This document shows positions 107-8,927 of a stretch of DNA of 64,000 nucleotides, piece by piece. The notes under the pieces were generated by a model. The model saw only the letters and a list, made by a program, of their open reading frames with translations, had not been told where the DNA came from and did not search any database. Both the position numbers and the translations under genes were made by a program. Source of the stretch: Armatimonadota bacterium (GTDB taxonomy: Bacteria > Armatimonadota > Hebobacteria > CAIYQO01); contig JAGUZN010000220.1 in assembly GCA_020060775.1 (NCBI GenBank), positions 984 to 64,983 on the forward strand, written 5' to 3'. Within the stretch, counting starts at the first letter, position 1, and each line of letters begins with the position of its first letter.

Positions 107-3016
107 ATGATTCAAGCCTGGGTCTTTTCAAAACTGGAACCAGTCAAAGATGACCCGATGGTGGTCGTGCGTGACCCGTTGGGATTGACGGAAGGCATGG
201 AGAACGCATTACATGCCTGGGGTAAAACACACACCTACGCTGTGATCCCTTGTGCGACTAACCTGCTCTTCCGATATAAATATGAAGAAGCACGGGCGGA
301 TGAAACCATTAAGAAAATACTCATCCTTGATCGTACTCCTTTGAGTCGGCGCACACGTCCTGATTATCATCGAGCAGCGGCGCCGTTCTATCCAGATATA
401 TTGGCGCAAACGCGCCCCGAGGCGTGTATCGAACTGGATCTGCGGCAGTTCTTGCGTGAACAAACAAACGATGCGTATTGGCCACAGGAAGTGAATGAGC
501 CACGCCTGGCCCGCCTGCTCATGAAATATCTCGATGGAGCTCTGCGTGCCCATGAGAATCTACGGGCGGCAAGCCCTGATCGTTTCACCGACCAGGATTT
601 AAAAACGATCATCGCTTTTGCGGCTCTCGGTGTACCGGAAGCTGCTTTTAAGAATCTTTCCGCCAGTGAGTATTGGAAGATCGGTCTGCGTGGTCATCAT
701 GAATTGCGCGGGTTGGAGCAGCTCATGCCTGAGATCACCGAGACGATCACCGGCAAACTGAAGAAGGCACCAGCCCCGTTCTGTTGGCTTGCTGATAAAT
801 ATGACCCAGACACGGTGATCCGGGCTTTTTACCTTTCCGTTGTGTTGGCACAGCATGTGACGCACTGGCAAACGCTGCCGGCGAATGTTGATCCGATCTT
901 TGGGCGTATGGGCGGCATCGCCCCCGAGACCTTGCAGGATGCTGCCCCCAAGCTGGTGAGCCTTGATCCGGCACGAGCGCAAAGCGACATTCGCGCGATG
1001 GAAGATAAGTTGACCGTTAAGAATTTGCATTTTCTGCTACTCGAACAGATGCAAATTGAGGCACGGTTCGCTGAGGTGATCGAGAAAGAGCAATACTCGG
1101 AATTATTCCGTTCCCTCTCGCTCATTCTCGCCCTTGATAATCTCTGCTCAACACACCCGACCCAGGAAGCGCAAAAGCGGGTGAGTGAGGCGTTACTGGC
1201 TAAACGTTCACAACGCGCGCTGGTTGACCTTCGCCCTTCAGCGACCTGGAAAATATTACGACAGGCATATCTCCGTGCCGTACGACTTCTCGCCTTGCGT
1301 GGGCAACTTGGCAAATTCGTCAAGGAGCTTGACCAATTGCCGGAAACTACGCAGGTGCTCTATCTGGCGCCCGGTCAAGAAAAAACCGTTGCCTTTCATG
1401 TGAAGCCGGATATTTCACTAGCCACCAATAGTGAGAGAGCTTCAGGGGAGATGCCATGGGCACTTCGGGTGTGCCCGGTATGTTATGAGCGTGGCTTAAT
1501 AGAAGAAATTAGTACGCGATCTGAAAAATTCGGATCGATCCCCGTCTTGGTTAGTTACATATGCGAAAACGGTTGCCAACCACAGAGTGGCGAACGCCTA
1601 CACAACGATCCAGATGACAAAAAGAGAGAGTATTTTAAGAAATATGATGTCGGTAAATTGGCCGAGATAGAAGAAATGGAAATACCATATTGGTATCCGA
1701 GAAATCGCATGATGAATGCCCCTGAAGATCAGGAATGTTGGGGAGTAAAATGGCGCGCTGGAACTAGTAACTTTCGAACTGTCGACGAGTTGTTTACAAA
1801 ACGAAATTTGTGGGCTCTCGCTGTACTCTTCAATGCAGCTTCTCAAGAGCAGACCAGCGATGTGCTTAGGTTTAGACTGGAAGCCATTTTACTAAATTTG
1901 TCTCGTATGCAAGGTAACACTACTGATCCTCGCTTCCCCAATAACATTATTCGAGGGACTTATTATACACCTCAAATTATGCGTGAATACTCAGTTTTGC
2001 CGTGGTATGCCGGTAAGATACGAAATCTAATTGATGGTTATTCTAAATTATACCCTTCATACCAGGGCTTTGGAGAGGTTTGCATTTCTACACAATCTGC
2101 ATGTTCAATGGATGCCATTCCAGATAATTCACTTGATTACATATTCACTGATCCACCGTATGGGGACAAGGTTCAGTATGGAGAACTCAACTTTGTATGG
2201 GAATCATGGATGGGGTGGAATACACTTTGGCATGATGATGAGATCATAATTAATGACGTCCGGGGCAAGACCGAGCTTGATTGGTCTGAAATGATGGAGT
2301 GTGTAATTAAGGAGTGTTACAGAGTCTTAAAGCCTGGTAGATGGCTCACTTTATGCTATCACGACACTTCGGAGGGAACTTGGGCACTTGTCCAGGACCT
2401 GATGAAAAACGCTGGTTTTATAGTGGACGTTTCAGGCAGTACTCTATTTATCGAGACAGAGCAGAAATCGTTCAACCAGCTTACGGCTGATATCGAAGAA
2501 ATGTTCTTTATGGCGCACCGCATCTCAGCGCTAACACACCGGCATCCCAGGAGCCAGATGGCATGCGGTCTCTACTGCATAATGGCAAAAGGCTTGCTGT
2601 ATGGATTGACGCCCGGAGAGGCCTACCGGTTTATGGTCGAACAGGGGCATCGGTGCTACAACGTCACCCCGTTTCAGCAGGAGATGTCCCATTTCGCGCG
2701 CATCCTCTCTGGCGAACTAATCGGTATGCCTATTAACGAGATTGCCTCCAGCGGCTATGTCATACATACGCTGGAGGCCAGTCTGTGGTGCCTGCTCACA
2801 ACAGGCTCATTCGAGGATGCTGTATTGACGGCGGTGAACCTGGGCGACGATACCGATACGACGGGATGCGTTGCCGGCGGGCTTGCTGGCGTGAGTTACG
2901 GAGATCATGCAATTAATGCTACCTGGTTATCAGTTATTGTCCGGTCATCTGATATGCGAGCGCTGTCGCAGCACTTTCTGGCAGTGATACCGCAAGAGAT
3001 CGGTATAGGAGTGTAG
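107..3016 (+). CDS. Mosaic 969-aa protein: unassigned N-terminal region, then a Zn-ribbon/DPPY DNA-methyltransferase module, then the C-terminal half of an ADP-ribosylglycohydrolase
   Basis: Cys ribbon at CPVC (aa 456-459) and CENGC (aa 486-490). Motif IV LDYIFTDPPYGDKVQYGELNFVW has DPPY at aa 682-685, as in N6A/N4C methylases, but I see no FxGxG/DPFxGSG motif I. From aa ~803 (nt ~2510) the sequence becomes ARH-like (ALTHRHP, GDDTDTTGCVAGGLAG). GC falls at ~1400-2490 and rises again after. Confidence 0.6.
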   Translation: MIQAWVFSKLEPVKDDPMVVVRDPLGLTEGMENALHAWGKTHTYAVIPCATNLLFRYKYEEARADETIKKILILDRTPLSRRTRPDYHRAAAPFYPDILAQTRPEACIELDLRQFLREQTNDAYWPQEVNEPRLARLLMKYLDGALRAHENLRAASPDRFTDQDLKTIIAFAALGVPEAAFKNLSASEYWKIGLRGHHELRGLEQLMPEITETITGKLKKAPAPFCWLADKYDPDTVIRAFYLSVVLAQHVTHWQTLPANVDPIFGRMGGIAPETLQDAAPKLVSLDPARAQSDIRAMEDKLTVKNLHFLLLEQMQIEARFAEVIEKEQYSELFRSLSLILALDNLCSTHPTQEAQKRVSEALLAKRSQRALVDLRPSATWKILRQAYLRAVRLLALRGQLGKFVKELDQLPETTQVLYLAPGQEKTVAFHVKPDISLATNSERASGEMPWALRVCPVCYERGLIEEISTRSEKFGSIPVLVSYICENGCQPQSGERLHNDPDDKKREYFKKYDVGKLAEIEEMEIPYWYPRNRMMNAPEDQECWGVKWRAGTSNFRTVDELFTKRNLWALAVLFNAASQEQTSDVLRFRLEAILLNLSRMQGNTTDPRFPNNIIRGTYYTPQIMREYSVLPWYAGKIRNLIDGYSKLYPSYQGFGEVCISTQSACSMDAIPDNSLDYIFTDPPYGDKVQYGELNFVWESWMGWNTLWHDDEIIINDVRGKTELDWSEMMECVIKECYRVLKPGRWLTLCYHDTSEGTWALVQDLMKNAGFIVDVSGSTLFIETEQKSFNQLTADIEEMFFMAHRISALTHRHPRSQMACGLYCIMAKGLLYGLTPGEAYRFMVEQGHRCYNVTPFQQEMSHFARILSGELIGMPINEIASSGYVIHTLEASLWCLLTTGSFEDAVLTAVNLGDDTDTTGCVAGGLAGVSYGDHAINATWLSVIVRSSDMRALSQHFLAVIPQEIGIGV

Positions 3017-3314
3017 GTCTGCCTCCGTTGATGTGGAACACTCATCGCTCTTATAGCGACAGCTTGCCCTTATTTATCCGTAGGGGGACGTCAATATCAA
3101 TTACTCGCGCTCGAAGACACTGCTCTGCATATGGTTGAAGATAGGCACGAATCGGTCATTTAGCTAATCCGACAGGCACTATAAACGACGTATCCATTGA
3201 TATTGCGGAGTCTCACGAAATCATTGCTGGTTTTGGACCTTAGGCGTATACTTGCTCTGTTGGGCAAGTAGCGTTTGGGTGCAAGCCATAGTAATCGGCT
3301 AATGGCGCTATTCT

Positions 3315-4388
3315 TTGAAAGGCGTGGAGCAGACCGTGGCAAAGTTGTTCATGAACGGCCTACAGCTAATTCTATCTTCCGATAGCTTCACTGCATACGA
3401 GGCAGAAATGCCCGAAGATGGTAGCTTGCGGAAACTGCGCGACCGATATGGCGACGGGTGGTTTTTCCATCGTCAAGGTAATAAGGTATATGGTTTTCCA
3501 CAAGTCGATCGTCCTACCATCCCATTTGGCACGTCCGTAGCATTAAAATGCCAAGAAAACCTTTCTATGCTAGCTGCGGTAGTCGGTGATATTATAGGAC
3601 GACGTCGATTCGGAGGCCAGGTATTATTCCGTCATCGTGGTGCGGAGTTCATCAGTAGTACAAAGGAACTCATCAGTGATGTCGCCAAACAAATGCCGGA
3701 TCTTCCCGACATAGTCAAGTTATTCAAAGCTTATCCACGTTTTACTTTAGAGGCAAAAGTCCTTGAGCTACGCGATGGCGATGGTGGGATCGGGTTATTC
3801 GTTACGTTGGGAAGCAGGTGGCGTATCGAAGCACCTCTCCACGATCTGTTGAGTAAAGGTATTGACCTTCAAGGTATGTACGTCGTTCGAAGGTATCCCG
3901 AGAAAGGCCAGCGGAGGCTTGTTGGTAGAATCTCCTGCATTGATAAAGGAACCGTCAAATTGCTAGAGTCATTCGACGGTACGGCTGAGATTGCGTGCGA
4001 CGACGTGTGGCTTGAAGGGAATAGAGAAAATTTTGCCTATTGCTTGAAGCACTTACTGAAGGCGCGTTACCTATCATTTGAGACTAAGCGTAGGGAAATA
4101 GAAGACCAGTTATTGTCGGGGCCTAAATTTCAGACAACGATACAAAGCATTGCACAGTCATTTACAAATAAGCCTCCCATGCAACTCACTCCTGATCTCC
4201 AGTGCATTGTTGGCGATATGATTTCCGTGAAAAATTTCGGCGGATACTGCACTGTGCGTGCCGCTTCTCCAGTGCAATGTTGCTATGATGCTGCACGGAC
4301 GCAACGGATGGAGTATCCCTGGAAAGGGATCGAAAATTTGGTCCGTTTAGTCGTGACACCTTTACAAGAAAATCACCGACGATACTAG
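3315..4388 (+). CDS. Prokaryotic Argonaute, N-terminal half (N/L1/PAZ-like/L2 region), separated from MID-PIWI by a frame change
   Basis: 357-aa ORF ends 2 nt before the MID-PIWI ORF and lies in another frame. Its length fits the N-terminal half of a long pAgo. No motif is readable by eye. Start is uncertain (TTG 3315 or ATG 3351). Confidence 0.55.
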   Translation: MKGVEQTVAKLFMNGLQLILSSDSFTAYEAEMPEDGSLRKLRDRYGDGWFFHRQGNKVYGFPQVDRPTIPFGTSVALKCQENLSMLAAVVGDIIGRRRFGGQVLFRHRGAEFISSTKELISDVAKQMPDLPDIVKLFKAYPRFTLEAKVLELRDGDGGIGLFVTLGSRWRIEAPLHDLLSKGIDLQGMYVVRRYPEKGQRRLVGRISCIDKGTVKLLESFDGTAEIACDDVWLEGNRENFAYCLKHLLKARYLSFETKRREIEDQLLSGPKFQTTIQSIAQSFTNKPPMQLTPDLQCIVGDMISVKNFGGYCTVRAASPVQCCYDAARTQRMEYPWKGIENLVRLVVTPLQENHRRY

Positions 4389-4390
4389 TT

Positions 4391-5605
4391 GTGTTCCCCG
4401 ATAGTGAACAAGGACCTGTTGAACGATTCCTTCGTTCGTTTCGCGACGGGATATCGTCGTCAGCCTTTGCATCTGGCTTTGTCAGGAACTTTTCTCTCGT
4501 CAACTTAAAGATTGAAAAGGTGCGAGTACCCTGGCTGGGGAAAGGGAGTCAGGCTCCTGCGCAAGCGTATAGAAAGGCGATAGATGATTACTTGGCATCC
4601 GCAGATTCGGTGCCAGATGCTGGGATCGTCATTCTCCTAGACGAACATGCCAAACTTCCCGATGCGGTAAACCCGTATCTACATGCTAAATCATCATTGC
4701 TCACGGCAGGTGTCCCGGTCCAGGAACTACGGGTGCCGACTATCAAGCAAGCTGACACATCGCTTTCCTATACCCTGCGTAACATCGCTCTCGCTCTGTA
4801 TGCAAAAATGGGGGGAACCCCATGGACAGTCGACCAGGATATGACGATCAGCGATGAACTGGTGATTGGCATGGGGAGCTGCGCACTCGCAGAGAGCCGT
4901 TTTATAGAGCGTGAAAGATATGTTGGCATCACTACCGTCTTTCGAGGAGATGGCAGCTACCTACTGGGGAACATCTCCAAAGAATGTCCGTACCGTGAAT
5001 ATCCGCAAGTTCTGGAGAGCGAAACTATATCTGTATTGAATGAAATCAAATATCGGAACGGTTGGCGTCCCGGTGATACCGTGCGGATCATATTTCACAC
5101 CTACAAACCATTAAAAAATATCGAGGTAGAAGCGATTGCTGCCAAGTGTGTGCAAGCTATCAGCGGTGAGCAGAATATCGAGTTTGCATTCCTCACGATT
5201 TCTCATGATCACCCTTTTAGACTTTTTGATATCGACCAGCAAGGTATCAAGGGTACGAAAGGCATCTATGTTCCCCAGAGGGGAATTATTATGCAGCTTG
5301 GACGATACACTAGGTTGCTTTGTACAACAGGACCAGAGTTAGTCAAACGTGAAGGATTGCCTTTGCCAGCACCTCTGCTTGTTCATCTGCATCCTGCATC
5401 AACCTACCGTTCATTAGATTACCTAGCTGAACAAGTATTGAAATTTACTGCGCTCTCGTGGCGTTCGACATTGCCTGCGCCGAAACCAGTAACAATCTTT
5501 TACTCTGACCTGATTGCGCAATTCCTGGGTCGCTTACAGCGTATTCCTGATTGGTCTCCGGCAACTCTAAACGCAAAATTACGTGCGAGTCGGTGGTTTC
5601 TATGA
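4391..5605 (+). CDS. Prokaryotic Argonaute MID-PIWI half, predicted catalytically inactive
   Basis: MID-like ILVVFPD strand and NPYLHAKSSLL..VPVQEL (Y-x3-K..Q 5'-end pocket). PIWI hallmarks LRNIALALYAKMGGTPWTV and PVTIFYSDLIAQ. The positions expected for DEDX aspartates read VIGMG and IIFHTYK. This frame is already open from 4289. Confidence 0.8.
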   Translation: MFPDSEQGPVERFLRSFRDGISSSAFASGFVRNFSLVNLKIEKVRVPWLGKGSQAPAQAYRKAIDDYLASADSVPDAGIVILLDEHAKLPDAVNPYLHAKSSLLTAGVPVQELRVPTIKQADTSLSYTLRNIALALYAKMGGTPWTVDQDMTISDELVIGMGSCALAESRFIERERYVGITTVFRGDGSYLLGNISKECPYREYPQVLESETISVLNEIKYRNGWRPGDTVRIIFHTYKPLKNIEVEAIAAKCVQAISGEQNIEFAFLTISHDHPFRLFDIDQQGIKGTKGIYVPQRGIIMQLGRYTRLLCTTGPELVKREGLPLPAPLLVHLHPASTYRSLDYLAEQVLKFTALSWRSTLPAPKPVTIFYSDLIAQFLGRLQRIPDWSPATLNAKLRASRWFL

Positions 5606-6843
5606 CGACGTATTTGTCAGGAGTATATGCTCAGCAACTTAGTACCCTAGCGACACATATCGCTGATGATGCAGTGTGGCCATCTCCGTACGCCGGGTTT
5701 CTTTACTATCTGTGTAACAAATACGATCAGCAGTTTCTGGCACCTTTGATTAACCCTTCACCGCCATGTGTTGAGCTCGGGCGGCTTTACGAGGCACCGA
5801 TTCTTGCATCAGCAGGATATTTATTCGCGCTTAACCATCCTGTAGTTCGTGCAAGTTCCGAAGCTTGGCATATTGGGTTTCAACGGCTTGCTGGGCGCGA
5901 TCCCTTCCCAATTGACCGCCAGTCATTCGTATATCGTCCAATAGAACTGCTTGGTATTACACTTGGAGTGAAGCACTGCCCTAATACTACGCAGGCAGAG
6001 ATTGATTGGCTTATAAATGTGCTACAGAGTGCTGAAAGCCGGCTGAAGAGTGCGTCCTGTTGGCAGTACCTGCTTGGTATGTATGCTTCACGACTACTGG
6101 GTAATTCCTGGGCAAAGCGTTCCTGGGATATTGGGCAATTCCCTGTGGATGACTTGAGCATCGTGGTATGGCTGTGCGCCAATACTCCTGATTTAGCGTT
6201 TGAATTCGGTGTAGACCAATTATACAAGCAAGCAGAGGAATCATTACTGACCCAGTGTGCAAAAACGGAGGTTACCATCCCAGATCCCGCACGTGCTGCA
6301 ATACTCTACTCTAGTCTTGACCGAGCTGTGAGCCGGAGTATTGAATCAGAGCACGAGCGCAATTGGCAAATAGGCCGTGATCAAGCCGATGCCCTCTCAA
6401 TCGTTATCACGTTATGCCGTAGATTTGATTTGTGTGTAAGGCAACTCCAACGTAGGCAGCGAAGTCGCAATCCTTTCACTGTACAAGATGAGTATGATGT
6501 CCAAGACCTGATGCATGCTTTGTTGAAGTTACACTTTGATGATGTTCGTCCCGAGGAGTGGACACCGTCATATGCTGGCAACGCATCACGCGTCGATTTT
6601 TTGCTTAAACGAGAGATGATCGTTGTTGAGGTAAAGATGACTCGCGATAGCCTAGCTCAACGTGAGCTAGCGGACCAATTAATTATTGATAAAGAGCGGT
6701 ATCGATCACATTCTGACTGCCGTATACTGGTGTGTTTTGTTTATGATCCGGAGCATCGCTGCACGAACCCGGCAGCATTGGAGAATGACCTCAGCGAGCA
6801 GATCGGTCTATTTAGGGTTGAAGCAATCGTCTCACCTGCGTAG
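5602..6843 (+). CDS. pAgo-associated protein with a C-terminal PD-(D/E)xK nuclease-like domain
   Basis: Its ATG overlaps the pAgo stop (ATGA at 5602-5605). The C-terminal ~110 aa read DEYDVQDLMH..RVDFLLKREMIVVEVKMTR, giving an E..D..E-x-K core. The N-terminal ~300 aa are unassigned. Confidence 0.65.
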   Translation: MTTYLSGVYAQQLSTLATHIADDAVWPSPYAGFLYYLCNKYDQQFLAPLINPSPPCVELGRLYEAPILASAGYLFALNHPVVRASSEAWHIGFQRLAGRDPFPIDRQSFVYRPIELLGITLGVKHCPNTTQAEIDWLINVLQSAESRLKSASCWQYLLGMYASRLLGNSWAKRSWDIGQFPVDDLSIVVWLCANTPDLAFEFGVDQLYKQAEESLLTQCAKTEVTIPDPARAAILYSSLDRAVSRSIESEHERNWQIGRDQADALSIVITLCRRFDLCVRQLQRRQRSRNPFTVQDEYDVQDLMHALLKLHFDDVRPEEWTPSYAGNASRVDFLLKREMIVVEVKMTRDSLAQRELADQLIIDKERYRSHSDCRILVCFVYDPEHRCTNPAALENDLSEQIGLFRVEAIVSPA

Positions 6844-7290
6844 GTCTGCGGAGCAATGTTATGCAAATGCAATTCGTCGTACATCCGAGAACGTATGAGA
6901 TCAACGGCTATTTCTTTCAAGTGCTGTCATGTTGCGCGTTGACTGATGGGCAGGCAGCTAATGCTGCCATGCATTTTTATCAAACACATAAGCTAAAGAA
7001 GAAAGACAAAGGAAAATTAATTAAAGTCATAACGAGCCCTGATACGGATACTGCAGGAATCTTTGGGTAGCACGGCTACCTATGACTACAGATACGCCAA
7101 CCTAAGTTATGCAACGTGATCTGAAGGAAGCATTCAGCAGTATTACCAGGTTACTCCTACATGAGCGTGAGGAGTATTCATTAGGTCGGTCCAAAGACCG
7201 TGCTGATATTTTAAGCGCAGGGTCTCCAATTCCCTCATGGCAGCCCCTGCGACCATTACCTATGTGGATGGTCCTTCACTTATTTGATAC

Positions 7291-8298
7291 TTACAGATCA
7301 AGCAATGATGCCGAATTCTCTTGAAACAACACCCCCATGCGGATATACCGCTGCACCATCACATTCGACCGATGACCGGTCTGCTGCATGATAGATCGCT
7401 CGTTTGCACCTGCACGGGCGGCGGCGGTGCAGTGGCCGGCGCGCAGGGAGTGACCGCTGTAGCGTTTCGGATCAAGGCCGATCTCTTTCACCATCTTCTT
7501 GATGAGATTGGCGACGGCACGATCCGATAAGCGCTCACTGCAGAGTTTGTCATGACGGTTGATGCCGCGGAAGAGGGCGCCGCCGGTAATCCCGCTGGAT
7601 TCCAGCCAGGATTTCAAGGCACGCACTGGACAGGTTTCTTCATGAGTGCCAAATGGTATGGCGACCCAACGCCCTTCACCTTCTTGATCTGTTTTTGATC
7701 GGCGGAGGCAGATAACGACTCCTTCCTCCCTGAAGGTCAGGTCGGCGACATCAAAGGCGACCAACTCGGAGCGCCGGAAGGCGCCAGCGTATCCCAGGAG
7801 TAGCAGTGCGCGGTCCCGCCGGCCTTTCAATGTCTCTGGTAATACCGCCATGATGCGTCTCATGTCATCGGTCATCAAGGCATCGACCTGGCGGGCGGTG
7901 ACGCCGATCCGCCGGCGAATGCCGCGCATGACGGCCCGCACGGCGGCGTGTTGGGTGGGGGAGGGGTGGCCAGCGTGTTGGTGGATGGCGCTGATGGCGG
8001 CCATATAGCGCGAGAGCGTGCTGTACTTGTGGTCGGTCGTCGCCATCGCCGTCATGTAGCAGGCAATCGTCTCAGGGCTGGCCGGCATCGACGGCAAGTG
8101 GTATTGTTCGCACCAGGCCACGAACTGCTGCCAATCCCGCTCGTAGGCCTCCCGCGTGTGTTGCGAGATACCTTCCTCGATGAACTCCTGGACTTGCTCG
8201 ATCAGTGGAACGAGAAGGGTGTGATCGGGGTGCTGGTTGGCACTGGGCCCGATCCGGGCAGGCAGTGATGCTGGCTGGGTGATGGGAGCCTGATCCAT
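7291..8298 (-). CDS. Tyrosine recombinase / phage-type integrase (XerC/D-like)
   Basis: N-terminal SAM-like domain (TREAYERDWQQFVAWC). C-terminal catalytic signature RRSELVAF..HSLRAGHCT..TGHRSNVMVQRYIR (R..HxxR..H..Y). Confidence 0.85.
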   Translation of the reverse strand: MDQAPITQPASLPARIGPSANQHPDHTLLVPLIEQVQEFIEEGISQHTREAYERDWQQFVAWCEQYHLPSMPASPETIACYMTAMATTDHKYSTLSRYMAAISAIHQHAGHPSPTQHAAVRAVMRGIRRRIGVTARQVDALMTDDMRRIMAVLPETLKGRRDRALLLLGYAGAFRRSELVAFDVADLTFREEGVVICLRRSKTDQEGEGRWVAIPFGTHEETCPVRALKSWLESSGITGGALFRGINRHDKLCSERLSDRAVANLIKKMVKEIGLDPKRYSGHSLRAGHCTAAARAGANERSIMQQTGHRSNVMVQRYIRMGVLFQENSASLLDL

Positions 8299-8561: not shown

Positions 8562-8927
8562 GTGCGTAATACGTTACTTTTAGTTGGTGGCGGCGAATTA
8601 TCAACGCTCATCTACAAGCCTGCCCTGGAGGACGCCAATTTTCAGGTAATCCTTACGCCTGATGCACGGGTGGCAGTGCAAATGGTCATACAGTACCATG
8701 CTCAAAGTATTCTCATTGATGATTCGATTCAGCCCAGTCAAGCTGAGGAAATCATCACCAATATCCATCAACTCACCCCAACAGTTAAGAGCATTTTGCT
8801 CTGTGATGGCGATAATATCAGTGATAATGCTCTCCAGTACCTGTTTGATGGCATATATCAGAAAAGCTGGCCATTACCAGTTTTAGTCACACTGGTTCGT
8901 TTTCTTCTGTGTCAGCAGGAGTCCTAA
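8562..8927 (+). CDS. CheY-like receiver-domain protein, probably a pseudo-receiver
   Basis: 121 aa with a GTG start after GGGGGCAGG. REC-like layout LLLVGGG..ILIDDSI..SILLCDG..YQKSWP, but the N-terminal acidic DD pair is replaced by GG. The gene is AT-rich relative to its flanks. Confidence 0.4.
   Translation: MRNTLLLVGGGELSTLIYKPALEDANFQVILTPDARVAVQMVIQYHAQSILIDDSIQPSQAEEIITNIHQLTPTVKSILLCDGDNISDNALQYLFDGIYQKSWPLPVLVTLVRFLLCQQES

Follow-up and report, generated by a model that had tools for sequence, protein, structure and literature searches.

The 64,000-nucleotide (nt) stretch of DNA analysed in this work, referred to below as the window, is part of contig JAGUZN010000220.1 from an Armatimonadota bacterium (assembly GCA_020060775.1, positions 984 to 64,983). 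Between positions 3315 and 6843 of its plus strand, it encodes a prokaryotic Argonaute (pAgo) whose gene is broken by a frameshift, followed directly by a partner protein that ends in a nuclease domain. Our results indicate that this locus is very probably an abortive-infection operon of the BPAN type, comprised of a long-B pAgo and a bAgaN effector, which lies on a horizontally acquired segment of low GC content and whose sensor gene shows a 1-nt deletion that either disables it or is an error of sequencing. Long-B pAgos are known to occur together with a nuclease, a SIR2 protein or a membrane protein, in systems termed BPAN, BPAS and BPAM, respectively, in which the pAgo gene is located upstream (Song et al., 2023, PMC10620215). 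A first-pass annotation of the window, which was made from the DNA letters without database searches, had taken the two proteins to be a sensor-effector pair, and the full-length matches of both of them to the BPAN models of PADLOC (PDLC02379 and PDLC02411) argue that it was right in this regard.

The pAgo and its partner nuclease

Within positions 3315–5605, one long pAgo is encoded across two reading frames. The list of open reading frames (ORFs) contains two that abut each other on the plus strand, viz. 3315–4388 (357 amino acids (aa), frame 0) and 4391–5605 (404 aa, frame 2). The PADLOC profile pAgo_II (PDLC02379), which consists of 724 positions, matches the first of these over profile positions 2–314 (E = 6e-45) and the second over positions 334–724 (E = 2e-156), and the Pfam Piwi domain was also detected in the latter (E = 4e-17). 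As the matched parts of the profile run on from one ORF to the other and the Piwi domain is present, the two ORFs represent consecutive parts of the same protein. The 5' part (3336–4334, frame 0) corresponds to the N, L1, reduced PAZ and L2 regions and aligns with residues 34–350 of RsAgo, and the 3' part (4391–5605, frame 2) comprises MID and PIWI. The likely start of the gene is either GTG 3336, which is preceded by GGAG at a distance of 7 nt, or ATG 3351. As listed, the 5' ORF begins at TTG 3315 and continues out of frame to a TAG codon at 4386–4388. When one A is restored in the run 4333–4336, a pAgo of 751 aa (counted from ATG 3351) is obtained, in accordance with the earlier estimate that the joined protein would be of long-pAgo size (~750–760 aa). 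Residues 11–751 of this repaired protein align with the structures of RsAgo (5AWH, 6D8P and others) end to end, gap-free over 741 residues, with an E value of 8e-201. RsAgo, which is the Argonaute of Rhodobacter sphaeroides, is the textbook long-B pAgo. The repaired protein also matches EcAgo of Escherichia coli (PDB 23wq; E = 5.5e-83), and both of these proteins were detected with the ORF 4391–5605 by itself (E = 3.7e-142 for RsAgo and 5.7e-69 for EcAgo).

For comparisons of individual residues, the copy of EcAgo from a Klebsiella pneumoniae locus (L043) served as the reference; it possesses every residue named in the structural study of this protein (PMC13535254). The slicer tetrad of the window pAgo reads G509 (4874–4876), R549 (4994–4996), Y585 (5102–5104) and D720 (5507–5509), which align with G492, E532, Q568 and D700 of EcAgo; an intact DEDX tetrad was looked for and was not found. 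The 5'-phosphate pocket of the MID domain is formed by Y443 (4676–4678), K447 (4688–4690), Q458 (4721–4723) and K486 (4805–4807), aligning with Y426, K430, Q441 and K469 of EcAgo, and the C-terminal residue L751 aligns with L731, the Mg-coordinating C-terminus of EcAgo. The motifs quoted in the first-pass annotation (NPYLHAKSS...VPVQ, YAKMGGTPW, VIGMG, IIFHTYK and PVTIFYSDLIA) are all present, and they map on the MID pocket of EcAgo and on the tetrad positions G/R/Y/D. Judged by these residue states, the window pAgo is a catalytically dead protein of the long-B type, as had been proposed, and it should still load a guide, because both the MID 5'-phosphate pocket and the C-terminal Leu are intact.

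The pAgo family, as seen in a search of 5.8 billion proteins, is large and the window copy is divergent within it. Nearly all of the 120 homologues listed are 737–797 aa long and cover 96–100% of the query, the exceptions being one truncated protein of 587 aa and one DprA-Piwi fusion of 1022 aa; the best identity among the listed homologues is 55%. The fusion protein (P0193) is 50% identical to the window pAgo over its full length and carries an extra DprA/DNA_processg_A domain (PF02481), an unusual combination.

The partner gene is located at 5602–6843 (ORF 5551/5602–6843) and its product is 413 aa long. The Pfam family REase_DpnII-MboI (PF18742) matches aa 268–412 of this protein (E = 2e-51), and the PADLOC model Aga_Helical-REase (PDLC02411) covers aa 10–411 (E = 1.4e-74), with two sister models giving weaker matches. 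The PD-(D/E)xK core of the form E..D..EVK that had been read from the translation is indeed present within PF18742, where it consists of QDEYDVQD, RVD332 and E343-V344-K345. D332, E343 and K345 are encoded by positions 6595–6597, 6628–6630 and 6634–6636, respectively, and the spacing of 11 residues from D to E is the same as between D298 and E309 of EcbAgaN. In an AlphaFold2 model based upon a 36-member alignment (predicted local distance difference test score 87.6), an all-helical domain (aa 1–283; 5602–6450) is connected by a linker of low confidence to a nuclease domain of alpha/beta type (aa 297–411); the C-terminal PD-(D/E)xK domain is encoded by 6490–6843. Across the 36 members, E297, Y298, D299, D332, E343 and K345 of the nuclease core are invariant; in the N-terminal domain the same holds for D105, R112 and P113, and ≥90% of the sequences have R95. 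The homologues of the partner number at least 3916, and those listed are almost all 400–420 aa long and cover the whole query, including the N-terminal domain. This domain had earlier been described as an unassigned region of 300 aa; its presence is confirmed with a length of ~265–285 aa, but it is not unassigned, as it is covered by Aga_Helical-REase.

The relationship of the partner to EcbAgaN was examined using an orthologue of the latter that was rebuilt from the K. pneumoniae locus, where the gene is itself frameshifted. The rebuilt protein has the published residues D14, Y15, R77, Q81, D86, P89, R90, S94, H134 and Q189, and it matches the same model as the window partner, PDLC02411, over the whole profile (aa 7–382; E = 1.2e-105); EcAgo from this locus likewise matches PDLC02379 (E = 1e-292). 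A profile of the 36 partner sequences matches EcbAgaN in the PDB (23wq_1) with an E value of 1e-4 in the nuclease domain only, and hhalign of the partner family versus EcbAgaN gave a probability of 89%, also for the C-terminal domain only. In the loop R95–P113 (5884–5940), which is a predicted loop of low sequence identity, MAFFT places R77 of EcbAgaN at R95 and D86 at D105. Foldseek searches with the AlphaFold2 model revealed weak matches to the nuclease domain of Can2 (probability up to 0.85 over 85 residues); no significant match was obtained in the PDB library to April 2026, which is without 23wq (best E = 0.1), nor did a phmmer search with the partner detect any match among PDB sequences. 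A search of the protein database with a 124-aa fragment of EcbAgaN retrieved short fragments only. On the evidence of the PADLOC match and the loop alignment, the N-terminal domain of the partner is probably the adaptor/autoinhibitory domain of bAgaN.

The two genes are translationally coupled, as had been noted, the ATG of the partner (5602–5604) overlapping the TGA of the pAgo gene (5603–5605) in the sequence ATGA (5602–5605). The same start/stop overlap is found in the related loci L044, L046, L047, L050 and L052, and in L044/L045 and L046 it joins a Piwi gene of 760–764 aa to a DpnII-MboI gene of 411 aa. An effector gene lies directly downstream of the pAgo gene also in L001, L003, L044 and L046. 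In addition, 185,579 species genomes were scanned with partner peptides, and the 42 loci that were found were then searched by tblastn for the repaired pAgo. In all five loci that match the N-terminal domain (L001, L002, L003, L004 and L006), a pAgo ends at the start of the partner, whereas no upstream pAgo was detected in any of the 37 loci that match the nuclease domain only. A pAgo is thus located directly upstream in 5/5 of the loci with a full-length partner, and this difference (5/5 versus 0/37) indicates that it is the N-terminal domain that ties the nuclease to Argonautes. Further, at least 10 pairs of pAgo and partner matches have longest contigs of identical size.

When the partner was searched against plasmids by tblastn, the isolated nuclease domain was the only part detected and no BPAN operon was found. 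This isolated REase_DpnII-MboI domain, which is 45–48% identical to aa 200–397 of the partner, is common on small conjugative plasmids of enterobacteria (207 records; among the examples H1–H25 are NC_021492.1, 11765–12307, and CP035774.1, 21209–21679), and no pAgo is present there. Several of these records are labelled 'malate dehydrogenase', apparently wrongly.

Interruption of the pAgo gene and alternative explanations

The coding sequence of the pAgo is interrupted by a 1-nt frameshift at GAAAATTTGG (4332–4341). In the three-frame translation across this break, frame 0 reads ...WKGIENLVRLVV...* and frame 2 reads ...RKFGPFSRDTFTRKSPTILVVFPDSEQ.... Compared to all homologues one base is missing here, for which the simplest explanation is a reduction of A5 to A4 in the present A4T3 run. 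After repair, the junction WKGIEKFGPFSRDTF aligns gap-free with WRGLSQFGPFDRPSF of RsAgo and it also matches the GPF(S/D)R motif of six relatives and of EcAgo; the remaining 750 codons are open and no second defect is present. The pAgo is encoded by a single ORF in L001, L003, L004, L044 and L046, and none of the >100 homologues that were seen is split at the site found in the window. Hence, the split is specific to this lineage and it is not an architectural feature, although the first-pass annotation had counted it among the points that match no described subtype.

As written, the product of the ORF 3315–4388 consists of residues 1–328 followed by 17 out-of-frame residues, and the first start codon of the downstream frame is GTG 4391, which is not preceded by a Shine-Dalgarno-like sequence. 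Residues 329–347 (KFGPFSRDTFTRKSPTILV), whose codons (4334–4390) are misread by the first ORF and lie upstream of GTG 4391, are absent from both products. This segment, which includes the conserved GPFSRD sequence and the first MID strand, is the most conserved stretch at the L2/MID boundary, and its residues F333, D336 and F338 align with Y318, R321 and F323 of EcAgo, which are contact positions for EcbAgaN (PMC13535254). Due to the loss of these conserved residues from both products and the lack of a Shine-Dalgarno-like sequence at GTG 4391, a functional pAgo made of two pieces is unlikely.

It is quite possible, without being probable, that the frameshift arose by mistake in a short homopolymer during sequencing or assembly and that the organism itself possesses a standard functional BPAN operon. 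A single indel in the A4T3 run is the sole defect of the gene, the other 750 codons being open and the functional motifs kept, which would equally fit a very recent mutation; the partner gene is intact; and similar single-base breaks at short homopolymers are found in L004, L006 and L043, some of these in long-read metagenome-assembled genomes. However, long uninterrupted ORFs (up to 1190 aa) elsewhere in the window indicate that the rate of indel errors in this assembly is not high, and the adjacent ORF 107–3016, being a chimera of gene fragments, suggests that real decay has taken place in the island. The split gene is also recorded in both the NCBI and the JGI copies, although these represent the same assembly. 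The breaks in the other loci affect the partner gene in L004 (~6090–6140), the pAgo gene in L006 (~4360–4400) and the bAgaN gene in L043 (~6030–6040; K. pneumoniae, CP153945.1), and with the window included one of the two genes is frameshifted in 4 of ~9 independent BPAN loci inspected. Such recurrent frameshifts could have come about because a toxic system is selected against, or they could be errors of assembly.

A very unlikely explanation is that the split is regulatory, in that programmed −1 frameshifting on A_AAT_TTG (4334–4340) or reversible phase variation of the A run throttles or switches a toxic sensor. The heptamer is in the correct phase (X_XXY_YYZ), a −1 slip on it would restore the pAgo frame with its length unchanged, and BPAN expression is indeed toxic in E. 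coli at 37°C (PMC13535254). However, any 1-nt deletion in AAAAATTT creates such a heptamer automatically, the homologues are read through this region with ordinary non-slippery codons, and the A4 run is far below the length that is typical for phase variation or transcriptional slippage. It is also generally known of slippery sites that re-pairing of the A-site Leu from UUG to UUU is poor. As no stimulatory RNA structure was found downstream (z = −0.09; 91 of 200 shuffled sequences fold as well), programmed frameshifting was rejected as unsupported. If the split were regulatory, the one-gene frameshifts in L004, L006 and L043 would have to be seen as a general way of switching such systems on and off, and not as decay or sequencing error, a proposal that carries just as little likelihood.

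It is most unlikely that the gene represents a truly split but functional long-B pAgo, in which an N-L1-PAZ-L2 piece and a MID-PIWI piece reassemble in the manner of a short pAgo and its APAZ partner, thus constituting a new subtype. The break at the L2/MID boundary is roughly where the short pAgo systems divide, and with TAG 4386–4388 located 2 nt from GTG 4391 reinitiation could occur. These features are outweighed by the loss of the 19 conserved residues, with the first MID strand and the effector-contact positions, by the out-of-frame tail of the first product and the poor start of the second, and by the absence of this split from all of the >100 homologues that were seen. Lastly, it is almost inconceivable that the partner gene encodes a DpnII/MboI-like restriction endonuclease of type II, acting with the methyltransferase-like ORF upstream and adjoining a pAgo by chance: the name of its Pfam family and the N6-methyltransferase core in ORF 107–3016 would accord with this, but the full-length partner is found only beside pAgos (5/5 versus 0/37, the result on which this possibility was rejected) with a 4-nt overlap, a methyltransferase is absent from the neighbourhoods of the relatives, the one in the window is a PglX-like remnant that has been truncated and joined to one half of an ADP-ribosylglycohydrolase, and EcbAgaN is a non-specific DNase.

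Relationship to characterized systems and proposed mechanism

The BPAN systems are of an already characterized kind. EcbAgaN, a two-domain protein with a D-EVK motif (catalytic residues D298/E309/V310/K311; PMC13535254), is a non-specific DNase that depends on Mn and structurally resembles Card1 and Can2 (PMC10620215), and the activated 8:8 complex of EcAgo and EcbAgaN has been solved by cryo-electron microscopy (Liu et al., 2026, PMC13535254, PDB 23wq). RNA-guided, DNA-bound EcAgo recruits autoinhibited EcbAgaN dimers via a loop of their N-terminal domain (Q81–R90), for which R77 and D86 are important; this loop enters between MID and PIWI and contacts Y318, R321, F323, S524, R552, N554 and D559 of EcAgo (PMC13535254). 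The isolated C-terminal domain of EcbAgaN is toxic and is restrained by the N-terminal domain, and in the E. coli system, EcBPAN, the DNA of the host is degraded upon infection by phage (PMC13535254). RsAgo uses RNA guides against DNA, and its downstream gene encodes a predicted nuclease (PMC10620215).

The window locus shares with EcBPAN the order of the genes (pAgo followed by effector), the G and D at positions 1 and 4 of the tetrad, the Y-K-Q-K composition of the MID pocket and the C-terminal Leu. In its effector, as in EcbAgaN, a linker connects the helical N-terminal domain to a PD-(D/E)xK domain that has the D-EVK motif and the same spacing from D to E. The window pAgo and its effector fit PDLC02379 and PDLC02411, respectively, end to end, as do the two proteins of EcBPAN. 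Hence, although the first-pass annotation could place the pair in no described subtype, it corresponds to BPAN (PMC10620215, PMC13535254), and the window locus is a divergent and apparently inactivated member of this group.

A number of observations weigh against this assignment. The window pAgo shows only 51–55% identity to its best database homologues and its kinship to the characterized EcBPAN is modest, the match to EcAgo being weaker than that to RsAgo (5.5e-83 versus 8e-201). Positions 2 and 3 of the tetrad are R and Y in place of the E and Q of EcAgo; thus the glutamate-finger position is occupied by R549, a difference, albeit one without consequence in a catalytically dead pAgo. The effector is 413 aa long compared to 390 aa for EcbAgaN, and their N-terminal domains are only ~14% identical. 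As hhalign against the single EcbAgaN sequence sees the C-terminal domain only, homology of the N-terminal domains is argued from the shared PADLOC hidden Markov model and from the low-identity alignment of the docking loop. Finally, unlike EcAgo, the window pAgo is encoded by a frameshifted gene, and by its sequence the frameshift would fit a real lesion or a sequencing error alike.

Other known systems show likeness to parts of the window locus. RsAgo, the closest solved structure, is altered at the slicer sites in the same way as the window pAgo (GMG; FH-x-[HY]), and it has been studied mostly without its partner nuclease. The short pAgo nuclease systems (SPARDA and others) would be similar in combining a dead PIWI sensor with an effector of the PD-(D/E)xK type; in these, recognition of guide and target leads to collateral DNase activity and abortive infection. 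However, short pAgos are natively MID-PIWI only and have an APAZ partner, whereas the upstream ORF of the window is a true long-B N-L2 half and its partner, with the bAgaN helical domain, matches Aga_Helical-REase and not the APAZ models, which does not agree with a short pAgo plus APAZ system (SPARTA, SPARSA or SPARDA). The C-terminal nuclease fold of the partner resembles, by weak Foldseek matches, the CRISPR ancillary nucleases Can2 and Card1, but these are activated by cyclic oligoadenylate via CARF and no CARF domain is present in the window partner.

If EcBPAN and RsAgo are taken as models, an intact system would work as follows. The catalytically dead pAgo would accept small RNA guides with a 5'-phosphate into its MID pocket and would base-pair with the DNA of an invader. 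As in EcBPAN, the target-bound pAgo would then recruit an autoinhibited bAgaN dimer, with the loop of its helical N-terminal domain entering between MID and PIWI. Higher-order assembly would switch on the C-terminal D-EVK DNase, which would degrade DNA indiscriminately and so kill or arrest the infected cell. The nature of guide and target, the recruitment, the oligomerization and the abortive-infection outcome are all attributed here to the window system from what is known of the family. In the gene as written, the sensor would be reduced to an N-L2 fragment and a MID-PIWI remnant, and the intact bAgaN would remain autoinhibited. As the sensor is split and both of its fragments are without GPFSRD, the system is most likely inactive, representing a very recent pseudogene, or else it is intact and the frameshift is a sequencing error.

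Genomic context and wider distribution of the bAgaN N-terminal domain

The operon is part of an AT-rich island next to a tyrosine recombinase, in agreement with the first-pass annotation. The GC content is 42–49% over ~1500–7000 compared to 58–64% beyond 9500, and the recombinase gene is located at 7291–8298 on the minus strand. Attachment-site repeats and tRNA genes were searched for in connection with this island and none was convincing. Directly upstream of the recombinase start (8298), a 26-nt inverted repeat (8299–8324/8497–8522; 92% complementary) encloses 172 bp. A promoter-like sequence, TTGACT-18-TATTCT (8350 to 8321), lies partly within the repeat and is aimed at the recombinase, and inversion of the enclosed segment would aim it at the ORF 8562–8927; the segment may therefore be an invertible promoter switch.

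Upstream of the operon, ORF 107–3016 (plus strand, 969 aa) has no assigned domain in its first 500 aa, which are followed by a truncated PglX-like N6-methyltransferase core (aa 511–793) and then by an ADP-ribosylglycohydrolase of which the C-terminal half alone is present (aa 795–937; Pfam profile positions 139–285 of 287). The GC content within this ORF jumps at the join from 40–46% to 54–56%, and the ORF probably arose when a deletion fused the remnants of defence genes. Between the operon and the recombinase there are two small plus-strand ORFs, 6861–7070 (69 aa) and 7109–7324 (71 aa), and a terminator-like hairpin with a T-run (6953–6968, plus strand) was identified downstream of the operon by a consensus scan only. 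No counterpart of either ORF was found in the related loci L001–L049 when a conserved third gene was sought, and the 69-aa ORF gave no NCBIfam match. As the hairpin lies inside the first of these ORFs, neither of the two is likely to be a gene.

The N-terminal domain of the partner (aa 1–265) was also searched by itself against 1.84 billion representative proteins, which yielded 201 matches. Besides bAgaN proteins of ~400 aa, these include longer proteins (viz. P0291, P0296, P0297, P0300, P0304, P0358 and P0370) in which the N-terminal domain (PDLC02411 profile ~2–250) precedes domains other than the REase. These are TIR, the protease CHAT, the nucleoside phosphorylase PNP_UDP_1, a calcineurin-like phosphoesterase and the glycosyltransferase GT4-conflict, with some being unassigned; an alpha/beta hydrolase is indicated by a marginal Pfam match below the gathering score (E = 5e-4). 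In all five loci that were looked up, the gene for such a protein overlaps the gene upstream of it by 4 nt. This upstream gene is complete in three of them, where it encodes a long-B pAgo of 766–777 aa, the Piwi protein being 774 aa long in the CHAT locus (L047/L048), 777 aa in the metallophosphatase locus (L050) and 766 aa in the PNP_UDP_1 locus (L052). In the TIR locus (L049), the upstream gene is cut by the end of the contig and its remainder is 62% identical to the pAgo C-terminus; it is cut in the same way in the GT4-conflict locus (L051), where no pAgo identification was obtained. The partners of long-B pAgos named in the work on BPAN, BPAS and BPAM are nuclease, SIR2, membrane and VirE-N proteins only (PMC10620215). 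A full-text literature search for long-B pAgo together with CHAT gave nothing relevant, and PADLOC contains no models dedicated to these fusions. Judged by these arrangements, the helical N-terminal domain of bAgaN is a portable adaptor.

The window locus adds to the BPAN group one divergent and apparently inactivated member, which is ≤55% identical to anything in the databases that were searched. Its main value lies in correct annotation, as two 'hypothetical' ORFs and a 'REase_DpnII-MboI' protein are in fact a single defence operon that carries a disabling frameshift. The combination of the bAgaN N-terminal domain with other domains suggests that long-B pAgos have effectors beyond those of the nuclease, SIR2 and membrane classes already described.

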